Part shown: positions 3,460-56,237 of the stretch, in pieces
Layout of the letters: each line of letters begins with the position of its first letter
How positions within the stretch are numbered: the stretch's first letter is position 1
DNA from: Candidatus Thalassarchaeaceae archaeon
GTDB taxonomy: Archaea; Thermoplasmatota; Poseidoniia; Poseidoniales; Thalassarchaeaceae
Direction of reading: 5' to 3'
Length of the DNA: 64,000 bases
Assembly: GCA_943841885.1 (NCBI GenBank)
Contig: CALSZZ010000001.1
Span: 265,156 to 329,155 of the forward strand
Program-made: the position numbers and the translations under genes
The notes under the pieces: model-generated
The model's database searches: none
What the model was told of the DNA's origin: nothing
The model's input: the letters and a program-made list of their open reading frames with translations, nothing else

Positions 3460-4335
3460 ATGGTAAAGCGCATAGAGGTCAGAGTCCCTGTCAGAGTAGA
3501 TTTAGCAGGAGGTTGGACTGATGTGCAGCCATTTGCATCTGAATTTGGAGGAGAAGTAGTAAATTTTACTATTGATAAATATATCAAATTCTCAATGGAA
3601 AAGGATGAGCAAGGAAAGAAAAAAGTGGAATACAGAAGTGATGTCCCAACAGGATCAGGATTGGGTACGAGTGGAGCCATGAATGTTGGATTAATAGCCA
3701 CAATAGCTGGAAAAAATAAGACCCCAGAAGATATTGCAGAATTAGCATTCAAATTTGAAGAATTATTGGAAAATAAAGGAGGGAGGCAGGATCAGTGGGC
3801 ATCTGCCAAAGGCGGATTTAATCATTTACTTTTCATTGGAGATCAAGTAGAGCCATTACCATTTGAGCCAATGCGATCTTCAAAAAATTGGTTACATAAA
3901 CATTTCATAATTTTATATTCTGGAATTGAACATAATTCTGGCGCGTTACATGAAGAGGTTTGGAAAAAATATAACGATGGCGATGAGTCGGTTTTAGAGG
4001 GACTACATACAATTAGAAAGGCGGCTAGAATGATGGCAAATGGATTACAACAAGATAGGAGAGAAATCGTTGTAGAGTCACTTAGAGAGGTTTGTAAAGG
4101 AGTAGATATGTTAGATTTGAGAATTCATGCTCCATTTCATTCAAAACTCAAACCGTTAATAGACAGTAAGAAAATTATGGGTTGGAAGGCATTAGGTGCC
4201 GGTGGCGGTGGGTCTGTGGGTTTACTTTGTGCACCTAATAGTAAAGAAATGGTCATTAAAGAATTAGAGAGATTCGGATGGGTAAATATCAATTGGAATT
4301 ATGATGATTTAGGGATTGTAATTGACGAAAAATAG
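3460..4335 (+). CDS. GHMP-family kinase (fucokinase/HddA-like sugar kinase group)
   Basis: N-terminal RVPVRVDLAGGWTDV, GHMP motif II PTGSGLGTSGA, C-terminal GAGGGGS. Substrate cannot be called. Confidence 0.6.
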   Translation: MVKRIEVRVPVRVDLAGGWTDVQPFASEFGGEVVNFTIDKYIKFSMEKDEQGKKKVEYRSDVPTGSGLGTSGAMNVGLIATIAGKNKTPEDIAELAFKFEELLENKGGRQDQWASAKGGFNHLLFIGDQVEPLPFEPMRSSKNWLHKHFIILYSGIEHNSGALHEEVWKKYNDGDESVLEGLHTIRKAARMMANGLQQDRREIVVESLREVCKGVDMLDLRIHAPFHSKLKPLIDSKKIMGWKALGAGGGGSVGLLCAPNSKEMVIKELERFGWVNINWNYDDLGIVIDEK

Positions 4336-4428
4336 AAAGAAAATAAAACGAATTTGAAAGTATGATAAATGTCAATTAATGATTTTTTTGTGCCAAATAT
4401 CAAACGTTAGATTACTTTCGTCTCCTAC

Positions 4429-7400
4429 ATGGTTGGGCGGAGGGCACTATTGGCTAGTTCTCTTATCATGATTTTCATTTTACCATTGGCAACTTCTGCC
4501 ATACTGCCATCTGATAACTCCAGAGGAGGTTTGGATGCCAAAGGAGTATGGACCGAGAGAGTAGAATCTGGAATCCATAATGAATGGTGGTTGGATTGGA
4601 GTAGAGATAAGAATTCAAACAGTATAGACGACAGGATAGAATGGTTACTACAACAGCCCTCTGAAATTCAAAATGAATGGTGGAAAAGAGCCCCCGAAGG
4701 AAGTTCTAGAATATTTGTTAACTTTGATCATCACCCAACTGATGCTGATGTAATCGCAATTGAAGAGTTAGGCGGAGAAGTCACATTTAGGCCAAAACAT
4801 CTTGATAATTTGATAGTTACAATTCCAATAGAAGAAATTACTAGTCATTCAGGGATTTTAACATTACAAGGAGTAGTTATGATTGAAGATTTAGGTTTAG
4901 CAGAACCTAATATGCATGAAGCAGTTCCTAATATGGGCGTAAATAATGTTTGGAATGATTTAGGATTAGACGGTACAGGTTCAACTATTGCAATCTTAGA
5001 TACAGGAGTCAGGGGAGATCACGAAGGATTGAATGACATGGATGACGATCCATTAACTTGTGTAACTGAGCCTCCTAATCCTTTAGATCCTAATCCTCAA
5101 CCAATATCTGATTGTGATCCGAAAATAGTAGCTTTTTATGATGCGGTTTTTACAGATGAAGAGCAAGACCCTTCTACATCTTATGATTCGGGCACACATG
5201 GTAGTCATGTTGCTGGAATTGCTGCAGGAACTGGGGGCGGACAAAGTGATACAGCAACTGGATTAAGATATGTTGGGGCGGCCCCTGGCGCATTTCTTGT
5301 CACGATACTTGCATGTTGTGATGGGGACATAGAAGATATAATCCAAGGCGCACAATGGGCAATGGAAAATAAGGAAAAGCATAGTATAGATATACTTACT
5401 TCGTCCCTTGGAGAACAGCAAATAGAAAATCATATTGATAACGATGGGAGTTCATCATGGAGTAGACAAATGGACTATGTAGTTGAAGCGGGAATTATAA
5501 CTACTTTATCTGCTGGAAATGAGTTCGGCGGAGCGACTTTTGCGGGTTGTAATACCATTGACAGTCCTGGAGATGCAGAACTTCCAGTGACTGTTGGTAG
5601 TTTGGATAAGAACTTGGGATTGGCAATATATAGTAGTAGAGGATATACCTCTGATTTGAGAGTAAAACCTGATGTGGCAGTAATAGGGTCCAGTATAATG
5701 GCACCTGATGCGGCAACTAGTGACGGTTATACTAGTAAATCAGGAACGAGTATGGCAACTCCTTTGATGGCGGGAATAGCGGCATTGATGATACAGGCTA
5801 ACCCTGATTTAACTCCTGAAGAATTTAAAGATATTATCAGAGTAGATTCGATAGAAAGAGAAATAGTATTACTTGATGACCCGGGCTTTAATGATTGTAG
5901 TTTATTAGAAACTAGACCTGATAACGAATTTGGATATGGCCAGGCCGATCCTGTAGCATTTGTGGAATCTGCAGGAAATATAGACCGCTCGCTTAATATT
6001 TCTATGAATATACAAACTCTACAAACCATACACAATGAGAGTTATATTTCTGGAACATCTTCTGGAGCAATTTCAGGCCAAGGAGGAGAAGTACAGGTAA
6101 GAGTAGGAAGTGGCGAATGGAATGGAGCTGCAGACGTAGGAGGAAACGGAGATTGGTCGGAATGGCGAGTGAAACTTCTCCCTCATGAAGAATCAGGAAA
6201 TTCTACAATTTATGCTAGGTTGGTAATCTCAGAAGACAGGATTTCAACTGTTGATGCAAAACGTGTTTTGCTTGTCGATCAAGTTGCTTCAAATATGGGC
6301 GATGATGGCGATTTAATATCAATAGGGTCGTATATATTCTTCATTCCATTCTTCATTGCATTAGCAATTTTGGCCTATGCTGCAATAAGTGAAAGATGGA
6401 TAGATAAACTAGAGAAAAAGGGTGAAATATCTCAAAAAGAAAGTTTTGATATCAACAAATATGATCCGAGAAGATTTCCGCAAGTAATCAGAAACATAGT
6501 TAAGGAGTGGAATAATGGTGCATCATTAATAGAAAATCAATTTAGAAGATTGGTATCTTTATGTGTCCTGTATTTAGCGCAAGGATTACCTGCCGGATTT
6601 ACTTATGTTGCATTTGTAGCATACTTATCTGATAACGGAACTCCTCCGGAAGAAATAGCGATTCTCTTTGCTACAATCGCACTTCCATGGACTTTCAAAT
6701 TCGTATGGGGTCCAGTGATTGATTTACTAGTAATTCCAGAATATGGTAGAAGGAGGCCATGGATCTTATTTGCTCAATCAGGGATGGTGATTTCTCTTGC
6801 AACTATTCTCTTCGTACCTAATATTATAGATAAAATAGCATTAGTCACGATTTTGTTATTCATTCATAATCTATTCTCCTCATTGCAGGATGTGAGTGTA
6901 GATGCTTTGGCTGTTGATGTATTACAGCCCGATGAAGTAGCCAAGGCTAATGGAATGATGTTTGCAACAAAGAGAGGAGGGATAATACTTGGAGGGGCGG
7001 TTTTAGGCATGCTAGTTCCAATGTTTGGTATTAAATTTGTAATAATGATACAAATTCCATTACTAATTTTGATTATGCTATTACCACTATTTTTACGTGA
7101 GAAACCTGAAAATAAGTTATTTCCATGGGATAATTCAAGAGTCGAGAATGATAGTGTCGACGAAGTATTGACTGATTCCAAAGAAGATTTAAATTTAGCA
7201 TGGGAAGAAAATGAAGATTCTAAATTCAGAAGTGCTCGTTGGACTGCAAATAATATATACGAAAATAAAATTAGTATTTCTGCTGCATTATTATGGATTG
7301 GATTAGTGACCTGGATTTTTGGTAGTGGAATAGATATTATTTACCTAATTAGTGAGCCACTTATTGAAGGCATCGTGAAAGAAATTTTTGTAAAATTATC

Positions 7401-8256
7401 CATTATTAGTACTCTTGGAATATATTTGATTATGGCATCTATCTTAATGATAGTTGTAGAAGGTTTCGGGGTTAAATTACCAGAAATTATGAGTCCGTTG
7501 GCATTTTCCCCGTCCAATGCAAAAGTAAATGTTGCCAATACAGCGTATTATATTGTACAAGGATTTTCTACTCGCTCATCATTCTTACTAATATTTTTGT
7601 GTTTACTTTCCGACTTGGCATTATTCGTAGACCCAATAATCGTTGATATTTTCATTAATGAAGCAGGATGGTCACAACAAAAATACAATGCAATACTTGG
7701 AGGAATAGTAGTTTTGTTCACGATGTTGGGGCAAATATTTGGAGGATTTTTGGGAGACAGATATGGAGTCAGAGAAATAGCAATGATTGGATTTACCCTT
7801 CTTGCTCTAGCGAATGCAGGACTAGCATTACTTAATGCATATTGGGAAGATACCACTATCATGACTATTTATTTGTGTATAAAGGCAATAATATACGGAA
7901 TTGCTTGGATATGTGTTATATCAGTATCTATGAGACTTACATATAGTAAAGCAGGAGGAACGCAATTTACTGCATACATGTCAATGTTCAATCTTTCTGC
8001 TGTGCTAGCATATCTCTTTGCCGGGAGGATGATTGCTACTTTTGATTACATAACAATGCTATACATTGGTGCTGCTCTAACCTTAATTTCCGTAATTTTC
8101 TTATTATTCATAGATCCGGATGAGACAGATAGGGTTCTTGAAGGTAGATTTGGAGATGATGATTCAGGAGGAGATTTAGGAGAAAATCTTTGGTTAGAAA
8201 ATGAAGACCCGAAAGATGCCATATTAGTTGGAGGGACAGAAAATGTCACAGCTTAA
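4429..8256 (+). CDS. fusion protein: secreted subtilisin-like S8 protease + TM anchor + AmpG/PAT-type MFS permease
   Basis: Single uninterrupted 1275-aa ORF. Signal-like N-terminus, S8 motifs AILDTGV (D191), SGTHGSHVAG (H257), SAGN (N363), SGTSMATP (S441). TM at aa ~631-653, then a multi-TM domain with LPWTFKFVWGPVID...GRRRPW. Confidence 0.75.
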   Translation: MVGRRALLASSLIMIFILPLATSAILPSDNSRGGLDAKGVWTERVESGIHNEWWLDWSRDKNSNSIDDRIEWLLQQPSEIQNEWWKRAPEGSSRIFVNFDHHPTDADVIAIEELGGEVTFRPKHLDNLIVTIPIEEITSHSGILTLQGVVMIEDLGLAEPNMHEAVPNMGVNNVWNDLGLDGTGSTIAILDTGVRGDHEGLNDMDDDPLTCVTEPPNPLDPNPQPISDCDPKIVAFYDAVFTDEEQDPSTSYDSGTHGSHVAGIAAGTGGGQSDTATGLRYVGAAPGAFLVTILACCDGDIEDIIQGAQWAMENKEKHSIDILTSSLGEQQIENHIDNDGSSSWSRQMDYVVEAGIITTLSAGNEFGGATFAGCNTIDSPGDAELPVTVGSLDKNLGLAIYSSRGYTSDLRVKPDVAVIGSSIMAPDAATSDGYTSKSGTSMATPLMAGIAALMIQANPDLTPEEFKDIIRVDSIEREIVLLDDPGFNDCSLLETRPDNEFGYGQADPVAFVESAGNIDRSLNISMNIQTLQTIHNESYISGTSSGAISGQGGEVQVRVGSGEWNGAADVGGNGDWSEWRVKLLPHEESGNSTIYARLVISEDRISTVDAKRVLLVDQVASNMGDDGDLISIGSYIFFIPFFIALAILAYAAISERWIDKLEKKGEISQKESFDINKYDPRRFPQVIRNIVKEWNNGASLIENQFRRLVSLCVLYLAQGLPAGFTYVAFVAYLSDNGTPPEEIAILFATIALPWTFKFVWGPVIDLLVIPEYGRRRPWILFAQSGMVISLATILFVPNIIDKIALVTILLFIHNLFSSLQDVSVDALAVDVLQPDEVAKANGMMFATKRGGIILGGAVLGMLVPMFGIKFVIMIQIPLLILIMLLPLFLREKPENKLFPWDNSRVENDSVDEVLTDSKEDLNLAWEENEDSKFRSARWTANNIYENKISISAALLWIGLVTWIFGSGIDIIYLISEPLIEGIVKEIFVKLSIISTLGIYLIMASILMIVVEGFGVKLPEIMSPLAFSPSNAKVNVANTAYYIVQGFSTRSSFLLIFLCLLSDLALFVDPIIVDIFINEAGWSQQKYNAILGGIVVLFTMLGQIFGGFLGDRYGVREIAMIGFTLLALANAGLALLNAYWEDTTIMTIYLCIKAIIYGIAWICVISVSMRLTYSKAGGTQFTAYMSMFNLSAVLAYLFAGRMIATFDYITMLYIGAALTLISVIFLLFIDPDETDRVLEGRFGDDDSGGDLGENLWLENEDPKDAILVGGTENVTA

Positions 8257-8512
8257 TGAGCATTTTAAAAAAAGTAAAACTGACTTTTTGATGTTCTCAC
8301 AAACTATCTGTGTTTATTGTTCAATGGCGAAAAGATACTTGAAAAGTAAAGGACTGAGTTATACAGAAATAAATTTGGATCACCATGATGGATTAAGAAG
8401 AGAATTGGTAATGGAAACTGGCCATAGGACTGTTCCAGTACTATTTGACCTTAGAGGAGATGAAATAGTATTTGTCGGCGGTTCTGATAATTTGATAGAA
8501 TACAAATTATGA
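8243..8512 (+). CDS. glutaredoxin/NrdH-like small redoxin
   Basis: CVYC active site, TVPVLF and GG motifs of the thioredoxin fold. ATG 8243 has GGAGGG 7 nt upstream and overlaps the end of the preceding ORF. Confidence 0.75.
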   Translation: MSQLNEHFKKSKTDFLMFSQTICVYCSMAKRYLKSKGLSYTEINLDHHDGLRRELVMETGHRTVPVLFDLRGDEIVFVGGSDNLIEYKL

Positions 8513-8552
8513 ATTTAGAATTACTTATTAGCCTCCAAAGATTGGCAAGTTT

Positions 8553-8759
8553 ATGAAATTTAATGCAGTTACCTTAGTGCTAATATTTTCGATATCTATT
8601 TTTGCAGGATGTATTGAAGGCGGCAGTAGTGCAGGAGATAGGGAAAAGATATCTTCACTAGAGTTGGAAATAAATTATATTTTACTGCTACAAATATTGA
8701 ACCTTATCCAACAGATGGAAGACAGATGTACTTTTATTGGGAAAATCCTGGTCCTGTAA
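8553..8759 (+). CDS. small putative lipoprotein (possibly frameshifted)
   Basis: Signal peptide plus lipobox SISIFAGC. The downstream part reads better in another frame (8642-8770). Confidence 0.3.
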   Translation: MKFNAVTLVLIFSISIFAGCIEGGSSAGDREKISSLELEINYILLLQILNLIQQMEDRCTFIGKILVL

Positions 8760-8843
8760 TTAATATTTGAAATAGGAAAATTTAGAAAAATAATTTATTT
8801 TACATCCCATCTATTTTATTACATCGTATAATTTGGTATTGAT

Positions 8844-9728
8844 ATGGACTCAGAACCTCCGGGGTTAAGAATTAAACCTCTGTTTGGAGATGGAGACGGA
8901 GATAAGATTCCAGATATTGAACTTATGGAAGTTAGGACGTTAGGCATTTTTGCAGTTTGGTGGGATAAAAGGTTTGAATGGGAAAGTCGTGCAAATTTTA
9001 TCTTGAAAACTTTATACAAAGTTAGAGAGGATTGTATTAAAAATTTAGGAATGAGTGACCCCAAAAATGTCAGATTGGGTTTTTATCTTAATGTCTACAT
9101 TCATGACTCTGATTTGTATTACTCAGGATCTACAAAAAAAGATGATTTATTCCCAGATAAGTGGTATGCCATGGTTAAAGATAACAGAATGGGTCTACCT
9201 TACATGACTTTACCGTGGCAAGACACAGATGGCGATCTGGTTAGACATGAAGGTTTTCATGTCTTTCAGAATGAATGGTATAGAAAAAGGACAAAACAAT
9301 GGCACGAGTTGGGTTGGTATATTGAAGCATCAGCTAGTTGGTATGCTGCCGATCGTGCAAATCAAAAAGAATCCGTCACTAGTTATGAGAGAGTTCATTT
9401 CATAACAGCAAATCCTCATTTAGCCATATGGCATACAGAACATAATAAGAAAATTGGCGATCCAAATGAAAAAGAGCTTAATCAACGTCAATATGCTTTG
9501 GAATGTTATTTGTTCTTTCTTTGTGAGGTATGTAATGTTCCAAAAAATATTATAACTGATATATTTAAAATAAAGGATAAAGTAAATCCTGCAGAATACC
9601 TGTTTAGAAAGATTGGAAGTCAAAATTTACGTGAATTTTTTACATACTGGGCTGCTTGTAACACGGATGATTTTAGTTATCTTTCCAACGTACAAAAAAA
9701 AATTTATAGATATACAAAGGTGGAATAG
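8844..9728 (+). CDS. putative HExxH zinc metallopeptidase (MA-clan-like)
   Basis: HEGFH followed about 22 aa later by WYIEASASWY, a candidate third ligand Glu. No signal peptide. Family not identified. Confidence 0.4.
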   Translation: MDSEPPGLRIKPLFGDGDGDKIPDIELMEVRTLGIFAVWWDKRFEWESRANFILKTLYKVREDCIKNLGMSDPKNVRLGFYLNVYIHDSDLYYSGSTKKDDLFPDKWYAMVKDNRMGLPYMTLPWQDTDGDLVRHEGFHVFQNEWYRKRTKQWHELGWYIEASASWYAADRANQKESVTSYERVHFITANPHLAIWHTEHNKKIGDPNEKELNQRQYALECYLFFLCEVCNVPKNIITDIFKIKDKVNPAEYLFRKIGSQNLREFFTYWAACNTDDFSYLSNVQKKIYRYTKVE

Positions 9729-9833
9729 TAAAAAAATCTGTGTTAAATCAATTGGTTCTTTAGATGGAGTTCAAGGAATTTAAAAATAGGAGATTCAAAC
9801 GAGAATATTATTTTCCATCCAACGGAGAAATTA

Positions 9834-38526: not shown

Positions 38527-38565
38527 AAAACCAACTTTTATCCATAATGGCCATTGCATAGGGCT

Positions 38566-41500
38566 ATGAGAAAAGTCGGAGGTAAAGTAATTTTACTTAC
38601 TTTGCTAATTTTATCATCGATATTATTGACCATTGTGAGTTCAGAAAATAAAAATTTAGCATATAACTTGCAATACACAAACGAGGTTAGTTCGCAAACG
38701 GGAATAGTAGACGTACAAAGTTGGCAAATTAATGATAATTGGATGTATGAAGGTTATCTTGATGTTGGGAATTTCATAACATCATCAGGAGTTTCCACTG
38801 ATATCGAGTATCTATCTGGGACACTGGAAAAAACAGTTACTGAAATATACATATCGGAAATTGATAATCACTCTTCGATTACATACAAACTAGAATCAAT
38901 CGGGAATTATGGGGCAAATAATGTTAATTTGGATGGTCAGAATGGCGATATTACTGTTGATATGCTAACAACAGAGATTATTCGTGCTTCTGACATGGCT
39001 GTAGTTTCACAGTCTGCAATTGTGGAAATAGTCTTTTGTTACTATGTCTTTTTTTGGTGCATAGATATTGATGTTGCAGAATTAAATGTAACAAATTCTT
39101 ACTCTCCTGCCTTAGAAGGATTAGATTTTCCATTAAGTGTTGGTGAAACTTGGAGTGTAAATTACCATCAAGAAACAGAATACAGTGGAGAGAGCAATCT
39201 TGGTGTAGATATCCCTGATGATACAAATGATGAAAACTCGACAAGCTGGTCGGTTGTTTCTCAAGGTTATTCTGGAGTAAGTTATACTGGATGTTCTCAA
39301 TCATATAACATTACCACATACAATAGTGATGGAGAGGTAAGCGGATACAGATGGTATTGCCCTGCCATAAAAGGAGACATTAAATCATCGTTTACAGAGA
39401 GCATAGGATTCAATGCCGTACATGAATTAACTACTTATCAACCAAGTACCAGAGCGAACGTGATCGAAATAGATATCCAATACCCACTTTCCCCTTTAGA
39501 TACTGAAATATTCGCTTGGATAAATGTTACTAATCAAGGATCTCCTATTGCTAATCAGACAATGGATTTTAGATATGAAATTGAAGATGAAATTCGACAG
39601 ATAATCACTGATGAAAATGGAACTTGTTATTTGGAATTCAGCACTGGAAACTCAACAGATGATTCGATATCAAATAGTGATTTTGCAAGCCATGGCATAA
39701 TTTCATGGATTAGTAATCAGAACGTAATAGGAGTTTCTTCACTAAGTATGGATTTAGATGTCCACGAGGTAGATTTAGTAACTAGAAATGAAGGAGTGAC
39801 AGTAGAAAGGACACGCGATAATAATACAATAACTTTAGATTCCAGTATAGGATTTAATGCAATATCAGGAGATTATTTAGTTTTCTCAGTACCAGTTCTT
39901 AACAGAGGTTTGATTAATTCTCCACCCACTGAATTAAGAGTTGATTCACCAGATGGGAATACTGCTTTTACTTATGTCCCCTCACTGAGTAGTCTTGAAG
40001 AATCTAGAGTAGAAATTAACTGGACAGTTCCAGAAAATCAAATTTTTGGTTCTACTCATCTTGAATTCTTAGTAGATCCAGATGAAAATATTTCTGAAGA
40101 TGGTAATAAGTCGAATAACCAAGGTTTATTTTCAGTATATATCGGAGCTTTGCCAACGGCAGTATTATCTCTACCGAATATGATTAATACTTTAGAAGAG
40201 GTTGTAATAAGTGGCCTTTCATCTGTAGACCATGATGGTGGAGATTATGTTTGTGAGTTCGATATAGAAACTACAGGAGGTGGTTTGGATACTATTTTAG
40301 AAGATGACTGTGAATTGGAATGGACATGGGGTGATGATGGTAATTTTAGCATATATTTGACTATTATAGATGAAGAAAGTGATCAATCTTCAACAGTAGC
40401 ATCTATCATTGTGCTCAATAGACCTCCTGAAATCGTACTTGTGGCAAATTATGATACCATTCCAGTCCTTTCGGAAGTGACGTTTGAAATCACCGAAAGA
40501 AATGACCCAGATACTCAGACGCCAAACTCTCCTGTTGATATTCTTTGGAATAATACATCCTGTAAAGAAGGTCAGATAGGGGTTAAGTGTACGGTAACTG
40601 CTGTTGCAGAAGGAGGCTTTTCGATTGGTGTATCGGCTACCGATGATGATGGTGAAACAGTATATGAAACATATACCGTTGAAGTCACTAATATAGCCCC
40701 CTATAATGGTCAAATAGAGGTTTATACAGGAGCACAAAAAATTACTCCAGATAATAGAGGCGTATTTACTGCAGATGAGGGAGAAAAATTGACCATACGC
40801 GCGTGGGCAAGTGATTCCATTAATGATATCGATAGCCTACAGTTTTCATGGTCTCCGGATGCTGAAAATAATCCAGAAATTATTCATCAAAAACAAGGAA
40901 GTGAGAGTTTCATAAATCATACCTATAATTACAGTGGCCTTCAATTGGCAACTCTACAGATAGTTGATGATGATGGTGCACCATTAATTTTCGATAATGG
41001 AGAAGAAATTTTAATTATTCCGATTGAAATAATAAATCTTAATCCATCAATAGTATCCCTAAATCAGAGGCTGCCAGTAGAAGAAGGAGAGGAGTTACTT
41101 TTCAATATTGGAGTTTCGGATACCGATAATGATATTTCAGATTTATACTCATGTTTTGATATTAATCCATTACTAGATTCTGATTCATCAGGTCTGGCTA
41201 ATGATGATTGTGATTACAATAGTAATTACTTGGCTTACACATGGGATGATGTAAGTATAGCTCCAGAATATATAATATTCCATGTGTCCGATGATGATGG
41301 TGCTTCAGCGAGTATAGAAATAGAAATAGATGTTAGGAATGTTAGGCCTGCTGCAGTAGCAAGTATAGATGAAATAAATCCAGTTCAAGGAGATATTATT
41401 TCATTGAGTGCTAATGGGACAGTGGATTCAGAGTATGATATTGAAAATATGATTTATCATTGGGATACGGATGTCTCAGTAGACTCTGATAATGACGGAG

Positions 41501-41982
41501 ATCCATCAAATGATGTTGATATCCAGGGAAGATGGGTACAAGTTATTTATGACACAGAAGGTAAGAAAAATGTTAAACTGACCGTTTATGATGAGTCGGA
41601 AAGTAATTCTGTATATATGGTGGTTAATGTGGCTAAGTCTCCATTTGACTTTACAACAAGTATTAAGCAAAATTCAGCGTCTATCTTGCTAATTATACTG
41701 ATTGCTCTAGCAGGGACAATATTAACACTAAGGAATAAAGAAAATAAAGAATCAGATGCTAGAGAGGAAGAATCCGCGGTATCAATTGACCAGATATTTG
41801 ATAATTTAGATGATGAGATAGAAAAAAATAAAAGAAAATTGAAAAGGAAAATTGAAGAAGAAAATAAAGAAATAATTTCTGAATCTTTGAGTGTAATAAA
41901 TTTAGAAGAATCGGAGAAAGATAAAATGACCATAAATGAGGTCCTAAGTGAAGAAGACATCGAAGCACTCTTTGAGGAGTAG
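38566..41982 (+). CDS. large cell-surface protein with CARDB and multiple PKD-like domains, C-terminal TM anchor
   Basis: N-terminal signal/TM. CARDB-like segment (VLNRGL...VDPDENISEDGNKSNN). At least 5 PKD-like repeats (e.g. GFSIGVSATDDDGETVYETYTVEVTNIAP). TM ILLIILIALAGTILTL followed by a charged tail. Confidence 0.75.
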   Translation: MRKVGGKVILLTLLILSSILLTIVSSENKNLAYNLQYTNEVSSQTGIVDVQSWQINDNWMYEGYLDVGNFITSSGVSTDIEYLSGTLEKTVTEIYISEIDNHSSITYKLESIGNYGANNVNLDGQNGDITVDMLTTEIIRASDMAVVSQSAIVEIVFCYYVFFWCIDIDVAELNVTNSYSPALEGLDFPLSVGETWSVNYHQETEYSGESNLGVDIPDDTNDENSTSWSVVSQGYSGVSYTGCSQSYNITTYNSDGEVSGYRWYCPAIKGDIKSSFTESIGFNAVHELTTYQPSTRANVIEIDIQYPLSPLDTEIFAWINVTNQGSPIANQTMDFRYEIEDEIRQIITDENGTCYLEFSTGNSTDDSISNSDFASHGIISWISNQNVIGVSSLSMDLDVHEVDLVTRNEGVTVERTRDNNTITLDSSIGFNAISGDYLVFSVPVLNRGLINSPPTELRVDSPDGNTAFTYVPSLSSLEESRVEINWTVPENQIFGSTHLEFLVDPDENISEDGNKSNNQGLFSVYIGALPTAVLSLPNMINTLEEVVISGLSSVDHDGGDYVCEFDIETTGGGLDTILEDDCELEWTWGDDGNFSIYLTIIDEESDQSSTVASIIVLNRPPEIVLVANYDTIPVLSEVTFEITERNDPDTQTPNSPVDILWNNTSCKEGQIGVKCTVTAVAEGGFSIGVSATDDDGETVYETYTVEVTNIAPYNGQIEVYTGAQKITPDNRGVFTADEGEKLTIRAWASDSINDIDSLQFSWSPDAENNPEIIHQKQGSESFINHTYNYSGLQLATLQIVDDDGAPLIFDNGEEILIIPIEIINLNPSIVSLNQRLPVEEGEELLFNIGVSDTDNDISDLYSCFDINPLLDSDSSGLANDDCDYNSNYLAYTWDDVSIAPEYIIFHVSDDDGASASIEIEIDVRNVRPAAVASIDEINPVQGDIISLSANGTVDSEYDIENMIYHWDTDVSVDSDNDGDPSNDVDIQGRWVQVIYDTEGKKNVKLTVYDESESNSVYMVVNVAKSPFDFTTSIKQNSASILLIILIALAGTILTLRNKENKESDAREEESAVSIDQIFDNLDDEIEKNKRKLKRKIEEENKEIISESLSVINLEESEKDKMTINEVLSEEDIEALFEE

Positions 41983-50455: not shown

Positions 50456-50505
50456 CTGAACCAATTACCGTTACACTCTTGACCAATGAGCGATGTGCTC
50501 ATTTC

Positions 50506-51465
50506 ATGGATAAGGTATTTTCATTTGTAATGGCAATTTTATTTTTCAGTACAATATTGTCAGGATGTACTGCACTTGAAAATGATTCAGATGCAAATTC
50601 TGATAATATCATAGATGTCCCTACTTGGGAAATTGGAGAAAATTGGCTTTACACGTTCACCACACCAGAATATAGTGATGATACGGCTAAACTAGTCGTT
50701 GCTTCAGATAGTGAAGAAGAAGGTACGGCATACATGTTAACAATCTCCAGTTTAACAGAAGCAAGAAGGCATGCAGTCTTGAATCATAATCCTTTTTTGG
50801 GAAGAATGACACATAGTGATTTAAGCACCTTTGAAAATGGCGTCCCCCAACTAGTTATGGATTTTCCTTTAGAATTAAGCAAAATTTGGAATTATACTTT
50901 ATTCGGCATGGAATGGAGTGCAAATGTGATATCAATAGACCGAAATATTGCCGTTATTCAAGCTTCCTCGGACGAAGGGTCGAAATTAGTTTACTCTTAT
51001 GATTCAGAAATAGAATTCTTTCGAATGTTCACATGGACTGATAATGAAAATATTGAACAATTGAAGATGATGTTTGTAGAAAAAGGAGATATATATTCTG
51101 GAGATGTGTACTTCGTAAGAGGAGGAGATCTTTACTCCAACACATGGCAAAGTAACGGCCCTGATATAGAAATTGAAGATTCTTTTTTGGTCAGTAATCA
51201 TCCAAACGATGGAGAATGGGATGAAATGATTTACTTTTTAGATGCTGAATGTGGAGGTGGATCATCTTCTATTACATTGACACTAAGAGATCATTTATCT
51301 GCAACCGCTCTATTTAGGGCATATGGCCCTGGGTCAAGTGAGCTTGGAACTCTAGGAACTATTCCTTATCCTAGTGAAGAGTATACACTCACTGCAACAT
51401 TAACAGGGAATAGTATGTTAAGATTAATCTTTGCTGGTGGTATAACTCAATCTTGGACACTATGA
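50506..51465 (+). CDS. hypothetical secreted lipoprotein
   Basis: Signal peptide plus lipobox ILSGC. No domain recognised. The track ORF starts at TTG 50479. Confidence 0.5.
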   Translation: MDKVFSFVMAILFFSTILSGCTALENDSDANSDNIIDVPTWEIGENWLYTFTTPEYSDDTAKLVVASDSEEEGTAYMLTISSLTEARRHAVLNHNPFLGRMTHSDLSTFENGVPQLVMDFPLELSKIWNYTLFGMEWSANVISIDRNIAVIQASSDEGSKLVYSYDSEIEFFRMFTWTDNENIEQLKMMFVEKGDIYSGDVYFVRGGDLYSNTWQSNGPDIEIEDSFLVSNHPNDGEWDEMIYFLDAECGGGSSSITLTLRDHLSATALFRAYGPGSSELGTLGTIPYPSEEYTLTATLTGNSMLRLIFAGGITQSWTL

Positions 51466-52144: not shown

Positions 52145-53002
52145 ATGTTTCCTGACCCTCGTACTGAGAAGGGATCGATGGGGATTGGTTTGATGATAGT
52201 ATTCGTTGCATTAATTTTTGCTGCTTCAATATCTACAACAGTAATAATGAAACAAGCAGAGGATATATCTGAAAAGGGAGATTCAGTTTCAAATGGCATT
52301 AGCGATAGCATAAATAAAAGAGTTGAGCTTGTTGGAGCATGGATTGCAGGCGGCATAGATTGTTCTGCTGAACTTTTTCAACATTCTACCTTTGGGGGTT
52401 GGTCAGTGGTCTTCGATGTAGGAGATTATGATAGAACTGCAATGGAGGCTCTAGGGGCCACGGATAATGATGCTTCTTCAATAAAGGTAGAGGAGGGGTG
52501 CAATATAATAATGTATGAAGGCGAAAGTTTTGATGGTACATGGATCGCTTACTTTGGCGCTGGAGATCATACATTAGCTTCGATAGAAGCCGCAGGAGGG
52601 GCCAATGATCAAATATCTTCAATATCAGTAATGAGTTTTTCATTAGTTTTATTTTTGGAATTAGGAGTAGGTTCATCTTCGGTATTGGTTGATGACATAA
52701 GTACATCAACAGTTTGTGCAAATGGTGATAGTTTAGGAGTTGATTATTCCCTAATTGTAGATTCTGGTGCACGCTTAATTGGAAATACCAATACACTAGG
52801 TGAAGATGCTAATATTGCCCTAGGAGAAGTAATCACTGATAAGATGACAGTTAGAGTTGAAATGGCCTTTAATCTATGTGTGCCAAATATAGACTTCAGG
52901 CTCCCTTTAGATATTAATGTAAATTATGGTGCTACCACTAGTTACACATTGCCCATTGGATCGGATGAAATAGGGTATGACTTGATGCATCAGCCTTGGT
53001 AA
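52145..53002 (+). CDS. archaellin/type-IV-pilin-like protein with inserted beta-gamma-crystallin domain
   Basis: Class III signal peptide EKGSMG/IGLMIVFVALIFAASISTTVI. Archaellin-like strands RVELVGAWIAGG and LELGVGSSSVLVDDIST. Two Greek-key motifs lie between them. Confidence 0.65.
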   Translation: MFPDPRTEKGSMGIGLMIVFVALIFAASISTTVIMKQAEDISEKGDSVSNGISDSINKRVELVGAWIAGGIDCSAELFQHSTFGGWSVVFDVGDYDRTAMEALGATDNDASSIKVEEGCNIIMYEGESFDGTWIAYFGAGDHTLASIEAAGGANDQISSISVMSFSLVLFLELGVGSSSVLVDDISTSTVCANGDSLGVDYSLIVDSGARLIGNTNTLGEDANIALGEVITDKMTVRVEMAFNLCVPNIDFRLPLDINVNYGATTSYTLPIGSDEIGYDLMHQPW

Positions 53003-54806: not shown

Positions 54807-56237
54807 ATGGTAAAGATACTGAATAAGGAAATAGTCATTTCTTTTTTGATAGTAATAAGTACTTTTACCGCAGGATGTTTAGAAGAAAATAAGTCACCAG
54901 TAAGGGACGAGATTCCAAATTGGGACAAAGATATGGATTATGTTGATGACCCAAATAGTCACGATGATTCGAGAAATTTTGTAGTTGAAAACCCGATATA
55001 TAATGAAACTTGGGGAAATTCTTCTTGGGCGATTTTTGGTAATGAAGAAGGTGGAAATTGTTGTGAGCATTATTTGGCAGGTACTAAAGAAGGTTGGATA
55101 GTAAACTTTGGTGGCGAATATCCAACTTGGTCAGAAGATAGAGGCCATACATGGAATGAATATATACCAGGCGTGTTTTCTCAAATTGGATGTTTGGAAC
55201 CAAAACCAACAATCCCAGGGCAAGAAGGGCTGGGAGAAGGAAGCATAGTACAGGCAACTAATGGTGATTTAATTTCAATGGGGTGGTTTCCTTACCCCAG
55301 TACTAGCGGTGCCGACCAATTTTATGCTTTCTTGTATGATGCAGATAATCAAGAGTGGAATTGGTGTTTCAATAGAACTCCTGAGCCATTTTACGATAGA
55401 TCATGGCAAGTTGAAGTGATTGGCCCCATTAATGGAGGAATATATGGGAATGGCGATTATGCTAGTATTGTAATATCAAATTTTTGGCATCAAGTACAGA
55501 ATATTGGTGGGCAAATATCTACTGATGGTTTAAATTATGATTATTTTAGTTTCCCAGATAGAGATTCATCTCTAGATGTTATTGAAGTTGATCTAACCTC
55601 TGAAATATTGGGTGAAGAATGGGACTTTACAAAACCACATAAAGAAATGAGGGCTTTTCCTGTACCCTCTGGGGGCCTTTATTTTCCAAATTATTTTATA
55701 GACGGTAGTGATGCTTATGTCGATACATCACTTAATTGGTGGTCTGCAACAACACTCAATGGGTCCTCATTACCTTCTGAGTATTGTGCAATTGATTCAT
55801 CTACAGCATTACATTGTTTATTAGCAAGCGGTAGTACATTACAACACTTAATGTCTTGGGATGGTGGAGAAACATGGGAAAATAATACTTATGATTTACA
55901 AAATCATGCAAGTGGGATTGAAGAATGGGAGTTTCATTCGAATGGAGTTCATGACTTGTTTGTATTAAATGTCAGATACCAGAGTACAGAGGGCCCGGAT
56001 ATAGACATAGCATGGCATGTGAGGGAATATTCTGAAAGTTTAATACCTGATACAAAAACATATCTTGGACAGGGAGATTTAGACTCGACTTCAGGAGCAG
56101 GTGCTGACATAAGATTTGACTTTGCTAGTATGGGAATTCTCCCAGATGGTGGTTCATTTATCGCTTATCACGATTCTACTGACCCGGATCCTTTGTTTGG
56201 CCTTGAAATGTTATTACCTGAATCTTACAAAATGTGA
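54807..56237 (+). CDS. BNR/Asp-box repeat lipoprotein (sialidase-fold-like)
   Basis: Lipobox FTAGC. Asp-box motifs SEDRGHTW and SWDGGETW. Confidence 0.6.
   Translation: MVKILNKEIVISFLIVISTFTAGCLEENKSPVRDEIPNWDKDMDYVDDPNSHDDSRNFVVENPIYNETWGNSSWAIFGNEEGGNCCEHYLAGTKEGWIVNFGGEYPTWSEDRGHTWNEYIPGVFSQIGCLEPKPTIPGQEGLGEGSIVQATNGDLISMGWFPYPSTSGADQFYAFLYDADNQEWNWCFNRTPEPFYDRSWQVEVIGPINGGIYGNGDYASIVISNFWHQVQNIGGQISTDGLNYDYFSFPDRDSSLDVIEVDLTSEILGEEWDFTKPHKEMRAFPVPSGGLYFPNYFIDGSDAYVDTSLNWWSATTLNGSSLPSEYCAIDSSTALHCLLASGSTLQHLMSWDGGETWENNTYDLQNHASGIEEWEFHSNGVHDLFVLNVRYQSTEGPDIDIAWHVREYSESLIPDTKTYLGQGDLDSTSGAGADIRFDFASMGILPDGGSFIAYHDSTDPDPLFGLEMLLPESYKM

Follow-up and report, generated by a model that had tools for sequence, protein, structure and literature searches.

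We report an archaellin paralogue that carries a βγ-crystallin domain nested in its head and is encoded in a 64-kb stretch of DNA (the window) from a planktonic Marine Group IIb (Poseidoniales) archaeon. The open reading frame (ORF; positions 52145 to 53002, plus strand) has an ATG start in the ORF listing and encodes 285 amino acids (aa). The sole precomputed label of the protein's full-length relatives, which share 43 to 100% identity with it, is PF01917; automated annotation reports this family alone, and the crystallin goes unseen. We see about an even chance that the gene encodes an accessory modular archaellin, that is, a diverged duplicate of the archaellum subunit that carries the crystallin in its β1-β2 loop and has an adhesive or surface-modifying role. 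The features of the gene are as follows.

52145..53002 (+): complete coding sequence (285 aa and a stop codon) of the archaellin paralogue with the crystallin; 17 full-length relatives; overall ratio of nonsynonymous to synonymous substitution rates (dN/dS) of ~0.11
52145..52174 (+): predicted class III signal peptide, aa 1 to 10 (MFPDPRTEKG), presumably cut after G10; conserved motif and ArlB2 alignment
52175..52318 (+): mature N-terminal tail, aa 11 to 58, with a hydrophobic core helix, then an amphipathic half, ending in the INKR "hinge"; Pfam Arch_flagellin and structure model
52319..52360 (+): head strand β1 (RVELVGAWIA) and a short linker, aa 59 to 72; model strand 60 to 67 and alignment with operon archaellins
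52361..52639 (+): inserted βγ-crystallin domain with two Greek keys, aa 73 to 165; phmmer, Foldseek, hhalign, and dN/dS
52463..52480 (+): predicted calcium-binding motif 1, DNDASS, aa 107 to 112; fits N/D-N/D-x-x-S/T-S
52604..52621 (+): predicted calcium-binding motif 2, NDQISS, aa 154 to 159; fits N/D-N/D-x-x-S/T-S
52640..52999 (+): rest of the archaellin head (β2 onward), aa 166 to 285; hhalign, BLASTP, and Foldseek

Archaellin scaffold on both sides of the insert

At the N terminus, Pfam Arch_flagellin (PF01917) matches aa 10 to 68 with 30.7 bits against a cutoff of 29.5 (E value = 4.8e-7), and the Halobacterium salinarum archaellin 9eq7 matches the 285-aa protein with an E value of 1.9e-5 (phmmer). 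A hidden Markov model (HMM) of Poseidoniales operon archaellins matches the ORF with an E value of 4.8e-22, and this is the single such ORF in the window. The presence of archaellins in the window was judged by HMM searches in place of tblastn; tblastn with ArlB queries did not recover this ORF, probably as its tail was masked as low-complexity sequence.

In a profile-profile comparison (hhalign) of the crystallin-bearing family with 27 operon archaellins of Poseidoniales, the canonical protein was aligned over residues 6 to 195 of 195 (probability = 100%, E value = 4e-41), with the crystallin standing out as one clean insert that separates canonical positions ~76 and ~84. When restricted to the last 120 aa, the comparison still matched the operon-archaellin head (probability = 99.2%, E value = 3e-19), so the homology statistic is not due to the conserved N-terminal helix alone. 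BLASTP of the head against an operon archaellin (E value = 0.004) aligns both conserved Cys residues, and strand β1 (RVELVGAWIA) aligns to the operon-archaellin segment KLLVTDVYV. The rest of the head (aa 166 to 285) contains these conserved Cys residues (Cys191 and Cys245) and a clade-specific NTNTLG motif. N-glycosylation is usual in archaellins, and the count of N-x-S/T sequons in this protein is zero.

A Foldseek search of the Protein Data Bank with the whole modeled chain retrieved the archaellum subunits 9eq7, 8rh5, 5z1l, 7ofq, 5o4u, and 5ya6, with template modeling (TM) scores relative to the target of 0.55 for 9eq7 (E value = 1e-6) and 0.51 for the head-only crystal structure 5ya6. The archaellin N terminus and archaellin core strands that the earlier note had read from the sequence are thus borne out by profiles for the whole protein and for the head separately. 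The same note had held that a lack of archaellin or pilin matches in the flanking regions, or of a crystallin fold in the predicted structure, would refute its reading; archaellin matches were obtained on either side of the insert, and the predicted fold is described below.

The cleavage region, EKG/SMGIGLMIVFVALI (the slash marks the predicted cut), has a motif common to 64 other (mostly operon) archaellins. Its core, G/S-[IM]-G-I-G, is conserved in the clade of this protein and identical in operon archaellins, and the site aligns with the mature start AIGIGTL of Methanocaldococcus villosus ArlB2. The class III signal peptide of the earlier note is therefore retained, with one correction: the alignment with ArlB2 puts the predicted cut at EKG/SMGIGL (between G10 and S11) and not after SMG.

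The insert is a βγ-crystallin

The insert is ~93 aa long (aa 73 to 165; ~10 kDa) and has the two Greek-key motifs expected from the earlier note, FQHSTFGG (F-x4-F-x-G, aa 78 to 85) and YEGESFDG (Y-x4-F-x-G, aa 124 to 131). In an 11-sequence alignment (43 to 100% identity), the key residues F83, G85, F129, and G131 are invariant, as are four Cys residues, two of which (Cys73 and Cys119) lie within the insert. Both calcium signatures named in that note also follow the rule for such motifs, N/D-N/D-x-x-S/T-S (PMC3551895), and are conserved: all six residues of DNDASS are invariant in this alignment, and in NDQISS the invariant residues are N154, D155, S158, and S159. These motifs suggest that the insert binds calcium. 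A third candidate motif, DDISTS at aa 183, was taken as a chance occurrence, as it lies in the archaellin head and its N/D-N/D positions are not conserved.

Protein S of Myxococcus (1prr) matches aa 77 to 165 with an E value of 4.3e-11 (phmmer), and eight other solved crystallins match with E values of <0.01; clostrillin, flavollin, and hahellin are also matched. In an AlphaFold2 model built on the 11-sequence alignment, the predicted local distance difference test (pLDDT) score is 74 to 86 over aa 60 to 190, and a helix at residues 15 to 56 is modeled at low pLDDT. The modeled insert superposes on microbial βγ-crystallins (3so1, 1nps, 3hzb, and 3i9h) with TM scores of 0.80 to 0.83 and a root mean square deviation of ~3 Å, and its Foldseek matches include clostrillin, Protein S, and flavollin; a crystallin fold is thus present in the predicted structure.

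Distribution, relatives, and selection

When 1.84 billion representative proteins were searched exhaustively (hmmsearch), the full crystallin-archaellin architecture was found in only three 50%-identity clusters plus fragments, and all other strong matches were crystallin only or archaellin only. Eighteen species-level genomes, each assembled independently, and many metagenome contigs contain the fused architecture, which is confined to ~18 Poseidoniales species and to one clade of orphan archaellin paralogues. A crystallin HMM run over ~1.5 Mb of Poseidoniales DNA gave no match beyond the crystallin-bearing archaellin paralogues, and among crystallin-only sequences the best relatives come from Maribacter (a protein) and from a marine eukaryote (a transcript). 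From this distribution of sequences, the module looks imported.

Three variants share the scaffold: type A, to which the window protein belongs; type B (loci L017 to L022); and type C (loci L023 to L027). Type B proteins (e.g., L019, 10034-10930) have an extra DFLDPDGDGxxEA loop before calcium motif 1 and an NCGGxxC loop before motif 2; Pfam does not recognize their crystallin, and the family HMM matches them end to end. Type C proteins are ~258 aa long and carry a different insert, Cys rich and ~65 aa long, at the same β1-β2 loop. They coexist with type A in four genomes, and loci L010 and L023 share a contig. In a tree of the scaffold columns, types A, B, and C form a clade that excludes the operon archaellins (57 of 60 bootstraps). 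The operon archaellins lack the crystallin in the hhalign alignment.

The gene is under purifying selection. In comparisons with three sister-species copies, dN/dS was 0.06 to 0.08 in the crystallin, 0.09 to 0.12 in the rest of the head, and 0.20 to 0.23 in the signal peptide and tail, these values being approximate as dS is close to 1. The crystallin insert is therefore the most constrained segment of the protein.

The insertion loop

The insert occupies the first loop of the head, β1-β2, which in the profile alignment corresponds to LGNHSGGK of M. villosus ArlB2 (7ofq_B). The Asn of that loop (chain residue 58) is N70 in precursor numbering, and N70 is glycosylated in the filament (Gambelli et al., PMC8821640); therefore, the loop is predicted to be exterior. 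Several Poseidoniales operon archaellins have insertions of 10 to 30 aa at the same loop, which also argues that it is not buried, as a buried site in a major subunit would not tolerate them. Surface display of the crystallin is supported indirectly by this loop alignment and length variability. The proposal of the earlier note, a filament subunit displaying a crystallin on its surface, is supported by the flanking archaellin profiles, the modeled crystallin fold, and the alignment to an exterior loop.

Archaellins in or near the Poseidoniales arl operons vary in length between 180 and 342 aa (e.g., L062 [+7051], L044 [+10635], L072 [+10690], L075 [+10681], and L073 [+10012]). In some of them the later part of the head contains large acidic insertions, and some have Cys-containing insertions at the β1-β2 loop. 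The outer surface of Poseidoniales archaella appears to be hypervariable.

A second module at the same loop

The type C paralogues are found at the following positions.

L023, 6937-7713: type C paralogue
L024, 133-909: type C paralogue
L025, 9899-10753: type C paralogue
L026, 9968-10744: type C paralogue
L027, 10034-10744: type C paralogue

Their insert has no Pfam family match. Its profile matches L-rhamnose-binding lectins through the SUEL signature N-x-V-F-G-D-P-x-x-G-T-x-K (5h4s, E value = 7e-8 over three repeats; CSL3, E value = 2e-3), a match that spans only ~25 residues. An AlphaFold2 model of a type C paralogue from a two-sequence alignment was unusable (pLDDT = 41.7).

A database search with the type C insert alone retrieved 25 small proteins, at least seven of which are bacterial Flp/Tad pilins (P0182, P0189, P0190, P0192, P0193, P0195, and P0196). 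This assignment is based on PF04964 in five of them, on the name Flp pilin given to three by the Joint Genome Institute (JGI), and on the N-terminal sequence in P0189. In these pilins a GQGLVEYALIL... helix is followed by a Pro/Thr linker and then by the Cys-rich module at the C terminus. The module also forms tandem repeats in small secreted proteins (P0174 to P0176). It looks like an unannotated module displayed on pili, and its mounting on pili by bacteria supports reading the clade of types A, B, and C as display subunits. The small crystallin-only proteins that we inspected have no pilin-like N termini.

The two modules found at one loop may point to an orphan lineage of "display" archaellins in which the exterior β1-β2 loop is an exchangeable socket for imported ligand-binding modules, with genomes able to carry both; we put this forward tentatively, as a possibility that we doubt more than we favor.

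A further protein in the collection (P0072), eukaryote-like and secreted, has several βγ-crystallin repeats and a C-terminal SUEL-type lectin domain. It joins module types resembling the two found separately in the Poseidoniales archaellin paralogues.

Genomic setting and assembly machinery

The neighbors of the gene are housekeeping genes, and they encode an H+-pyrophosphatase, a 328-aa protein, an α/β hydrolase, a sulfotransferase, a class IV aminotransferase, and an Ile-tRNA synthetase. As the earlier note had observed, no other archaellum genes accompany it: tblastn with Poseidoniales queries for ArlH, ArlI, ArlJ, and the A24 prepilin peptidase gave no match in the 64-kb window, and the same queries matched 18 to 42 Poseidoniales loci. 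The window also contains no tRNA gene and no Rfam match.

The best genome matches have a copy that is 86 to 87% identical and lies in the same synteny; they include the isolate LRMED-428, labeled MGIIb-N1. On another contig, LRMED-428 has a complete arl operon (L056) encoding two ~200-aa ArlB archaellins (both full-length PF01917 matches), an ArlF/G-like protein, ArlH (KaiC), ArlI (T2SSE), ArlJ (T2SSF), and an A24 peptidase. The Poseidoniales sample comprised 80 of the 198 loci collected by family profile. Within it, ArlH, ArlI, and ArlJ were found on another contig in 7 of the 18 carrier genomes (L056, L067, L034, L037, L060, L054, and L072), and one more carrier has a partial operon ended by the contig end (L075); the remaining 10 of the 18 lie outside the sampled operon loci. 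The prepilin peptidase and assembly ATPase that the earlier note suggested looking for elsewhere, and also a platform protein, are hence present in a sister genome and in other carriers, six of which show ArlH, ArlI, and ArlJ.

Ahead of the Poseidoniales arl operons lie genes for a conserved giant protein (1,660 to 1,730 aa) and for a ~344-aa protein, detected by tblastn in 52 and 53 loci, respectively; in L056 these lie at 3809-8800 and 8797-9831, with equivalents in ~50 other loci. Two further conserved proteins (272 and 158 aa) are encoded between the archaellins and the ArlF/G-like gene.

Within the window, the flanking 328-aa protein (50479-51465, plus strand) and a 476-aa protein (54807-56237, plus strand) have N-terminal hydrophobic segments; neither has a Pfam match, and their synteny holds within the genus only. 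A single 1,275-aa ORF at 4429-8256 (plus strand) joins an S8 subtilase (aa 182 to 504) to a major facilitator superfamily (MFS) transporter (aa 711 to 1010 and beyond), an unusual fusion of protease and transporter in an organism thought to live on proteins. At 38554-41982 (plus strand), a 1,142-aa protein has a CARDB (cell-adhesion-related) domain and is possibly a surface or adhesion protein.

Proposed role and alternative explanations

As an accessory archaellin, the preprotein would be inserted in the membrane and its 10-residue class III signal peptide removed between G10 and S11 by an A24 prepilin peptidase of the kind encoded at the arl operon end in relatives. The ArlH/ArlI/ArlJ machine would then use the hydrophobic N-terminal helix to lift the subunit into the filament, where this helix would be buried and the head would lie in the outer layer, with the crystallin projecting outward because the β1-β2 loop faces the exterior. 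Seawater contains ~10 mM calcium. Microbial crystallins bind calcium at 4 to 100 µM and gain stability from it (PMC3551895), so both sites would be permanently filled in seawater, and calcium would act as a structural staple rather than as a switch or signal, giving a rigid knob. This knob would most likely bind particles, algal surfaces, other cells, or neighboring filaments, and the protein would be an adhesive or surface-modifying subunit and not the bulk propulsive one.

Protein S undergoes calcium-dependent surface assembly. The archaella of Marine Group II (MGII) reportedly serve motility, according to Tully. Rinke et al. proposed that they serve adhesion (PMC6461757), and in bacterial modular pilins adhesion is served by grafted modules (PMC8179133). 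We infer a binding or adhesive role for the window protein by analogy with Protein S, with the bacterial modular pilins, with the module of the type C sister paralogues, and with the MGII adhesion hypothesis.

Several points weigh against this reading. The Pfam Crystall profile (PF00030) reaches 19.1 bits, under its 25-bit cutoff (E value = 1.5e-3); the profile searches suggested by the earlier note therefore succeeded for Arch_flagellin and fell short for Crystall, although Protein S itself matches strongly. The AlphaFold2 model is moderately confident (mean pLDDT = 64.7), with the tail below 50. No filament genes are linked to the gene, and its neighborhood is not conserved in distant relatives, none of it beyond the genus; a relative at 43% identity lies in a wholly different gene neighborhood. 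The genome of the window was seen over 64 kb only, and no arl operon was observed in it. We infer the processing and assembly of the protein from its sequence. Finally, to our knowledge βγ-crystallins have no general proven ligand, their best-documented property being calcium-dependent stability, and the adhesive role consequently rests on analogy.

The tail and hinge also weigh on that side. Operon-archaellin tails are near invariant across Poseidoniales (19.0 of 20 core residues and 19.3 of 25 residues in the amphipathic half). The insert-bearing proteins agree with the operon archaellin of the same genome at 11 to 20 of 20 core and 4 to 12 of 25 amphipathic positions, most clade members retaining 16 to 20 of the core-helix residues; for the window protein and the sister-species operon archaellin, the values are 12 of 20 and 4 of 25. 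This divergence argues against simple copacking in one lattice with the operon archaellins. The hinge Gly is absent in 24 of 24 clade members and present (as SG, AG, or GG) in 63 of 64 other archaellins, the window protein having I-N-K-R versus I-S-G-K in operon archaellins. A Ser-Gly hinge has been proposed as a marker of archaellins, or propulsive filaments (Gambelli et al., PMC8821640). However, the aligned site in the H. salinarum archaellin reads V-S-N-R; since this protein forms a swimming filament and also lacks the Gly, the hinge criterion is weak and not decisive. For this reason we downgraded the missing hinge as evidence against a propulsive role and do not take it to prove a nonmotile one.

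A tail diverged to this degree also suits a self-packing subunit, and it fits at least as well a crystallin-sheathed alternative major archaellin, assembled by the same ArlHIJ and largely self-polymerizing, whose sheath would alter stiffness, waveform, or surface chemistry in a mechanical or protective role. Such an "ecoparalogue" of the operon archaellins would be switched on under particular conditions. We think this leading alternative somewhat unlikely. In Haloarcula marismortui, ArlA2 and ArlB function as major archaellins, and their outer domains form a sheath, with dimerization proposed to stiffen the filament, and large archaellins usually coexist with ~200-aa ones and were proposed to be produced on particular needs only (PMC13357602). 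Some microbial crystallin domains self-associate (vibrillin, PMC3551895), and crystallin domains characteristically pair. As in the window protein, there is no sequon in the Haloarcula archaellins, where the outer domain was suggested to replace glycans (PMC13357602). On the other hand, at ~10 kDa the insert is small compared with the ~250-aa Haloarcula D2 domain and sits in a different loop, and the module of the sister paralogue is found on adhesive-type Flp pilins in bacteria, which points to binding and not to mechanics.

The orphan location of the gene, together with its diverged tail and hinge, might instead indicate that the protein is not a filament subunit at all but a surface protein with a calcium-binding or adhesive function, held in the membrane by its N-terminal helix with or without signal-peptide cleavage, or a pseudoarchaellin at the base of the machine, as are ArlF and ArlG, the archaellum stator proteins. 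Binding proteins that bear class III signal peptides are widespread in archaea (bioRxiv 10.64898/2026.04.22.720090). We nevertheless consider this unlikely. The exact archaellin cleavage motif is kept, as are most core-helix residues in most clade members and a complete head with both conserved Cys residues, none of which a simple membrane anchor needs. The NCBIfam ArlG match, which would speak for this reading, is weak (E value = 0.054; 13.5 bits against a cutoff of 110). ArlF/ArlG identity was rejected on this score and on the presence of the class III cleavage motif; the operon of the sister genome has its own ArlF/G-like gene.

It is more improbable still that the protein is a subunit of a separate, nonrotating type IV pilus-like adhesive fiber served by a different ATPase/platform pair encoded elsewhere. 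Archaeal pilin genes are typically scattered from the assembly genes (as are the Haloferax pilA genes), and the SG hinge proposed to mark propulsive filaments (PMC8821640) is lost. But the scaffold is that of an archaellin and not of an archaeal pilin, its closest relatives by far being operon archaellins of the same order, and the swimming filament of H. salinarum lacks the hinge Gly as well. Neither the window nor the surroundings of any relative showed a second T2SSE/T2SSF pair; whole genomes were not searched.

A chance resemblance, an assembly chimera, or a decaying pseudogene, which the subthreshold Crystall score and the barely suprathreshold Arch_flagellin score might suggest, is effectively refuted by recurrence in 18 independently assembled species-level genomes and many metagenome contigs, by a dN/dS of ~0.1 that is lowest in the insert, and by strong profile and fold statistics.

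Relation to known systems

The window protein shares with the Poseidoniales operon archaellins the class III cleavage motif, the hydrophobic N-terminal helix, and the head fold with two Cys residues. It differs from them in its 93-aa crystallin, its location outside the operon, its diverged amphipathic tail and hinge, and its membership in a separate clade.

Structures reported in 2026 revealed archaellins that have additional outer domains, and such large archaellins occur in various archaea (PMC13357602). Like the window protein, H. marismortui ArlA2 and ArlB (9v95 and 9v96; PMC13357602) combine a core with an extra exterior domain, lack sequons, and have canonical ~200-aa archaellins in the same order. 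Their D2 domain, however, has ~250 aa in two fused β-sandwiches without a known homologue and lies later in the head, and these proteins are major subunits, whereas the window module is a recognizable 10-kDa crystallin at the first loop with predicted calcium binding. The profile match of the crystallin-archaellin to 9v95 and 9v96 covers the core only (to chain residue ~154 in 9v95). The window protein has no Haloarcula-type D2 domain, its insert being a crystallin.

Bacterial modular type IV pilins, such as Streptococcus sanguinis PilB with its von Willebrand factor A (vWA) module and PilC with its lectin module, likewise graft a nonfilament module onto a filament-subunit carrier, and the metal-dependent module of PilB mediates adhesion (PMC8179133). 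In ComZ and GspK, the module is inserted into the pilin β-sheet, within the globular part, as is the window insert (PMC8179133). With a βγ-crystallin on an archaellin scaffold, the window protein falls within the definition of a modular type-4-filament subunit given by Raynaud et al. (PMC8179133), whose definition and survey covered bacterial IPR012902 pilins only; in the supplementary text of that survey, as far as it was available to us, crystallins are not mentioned. The bacterial carriers are pilins with an N-methylation motif, thought to sit at the tip, whereas the carrier here is an archaellin. Bacterial flagellins with functional outer domains (e.g., proteolytic ones, cited in PMC13357602) also combine a polymerizing core with an exposed functional insert, but bacterial flagellin is unrelated to archaellin and the design is convergent.

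Among microbial crystallins (Protein S, clostrillin, flavollin, vibrillin, and M-crystallin), the insert shares the two Greek keys, both signatures, and sequence and fold matches. Those crystallins are free standing or part of large secreted proteins, whereas the window crystallin is nested inside a filament-subunit domain. Its Cys pair, C73 and C119, also occurs in the marine "GW-type" crystallins P0028 and P0105.

The literature that we searched from the archaellin and crystallin sides contained no description of an archaellin-crystallin fusion, and an MGII metatranscriptome paper makes no mention of archaella. The view of the earlier note that there is no described example therefore holds for a crystallin in an archaellin but not for the general idea, which has precedents (PMC13357602 and PMC8179133). 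We could find no account of a recognizable calcium-binding-type crystallin nested within the head of an archaellin, of its confinement to one orphan paralogue clade of Poseidoniales, or of module exchange at a single loop.

Implications for Marine Group II

Marine Group II archaea are uncultured and are the most abundant archaea of surface seawater, and it is debated whether they use their archaella to swim or to attach to particles. The conserved extracellular module predicted here gives this debate a concrete molecular handle: because an archaellin paralogue has a recognizable conserved module, the question of motility versus adhesion becomes experimentally approachable. The principle of the modular filament subunit, known from bacterial pilins and flagellins, now also takes in archaellins whose module can be identified. 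If a lineage of display archaellins does exist, it would be an archaeal counterpart of the bacterial modular pilins with an independent origin, and the archaellum would be a programmable adhesion organelle of the ocean's most abundant planktonic archaea.

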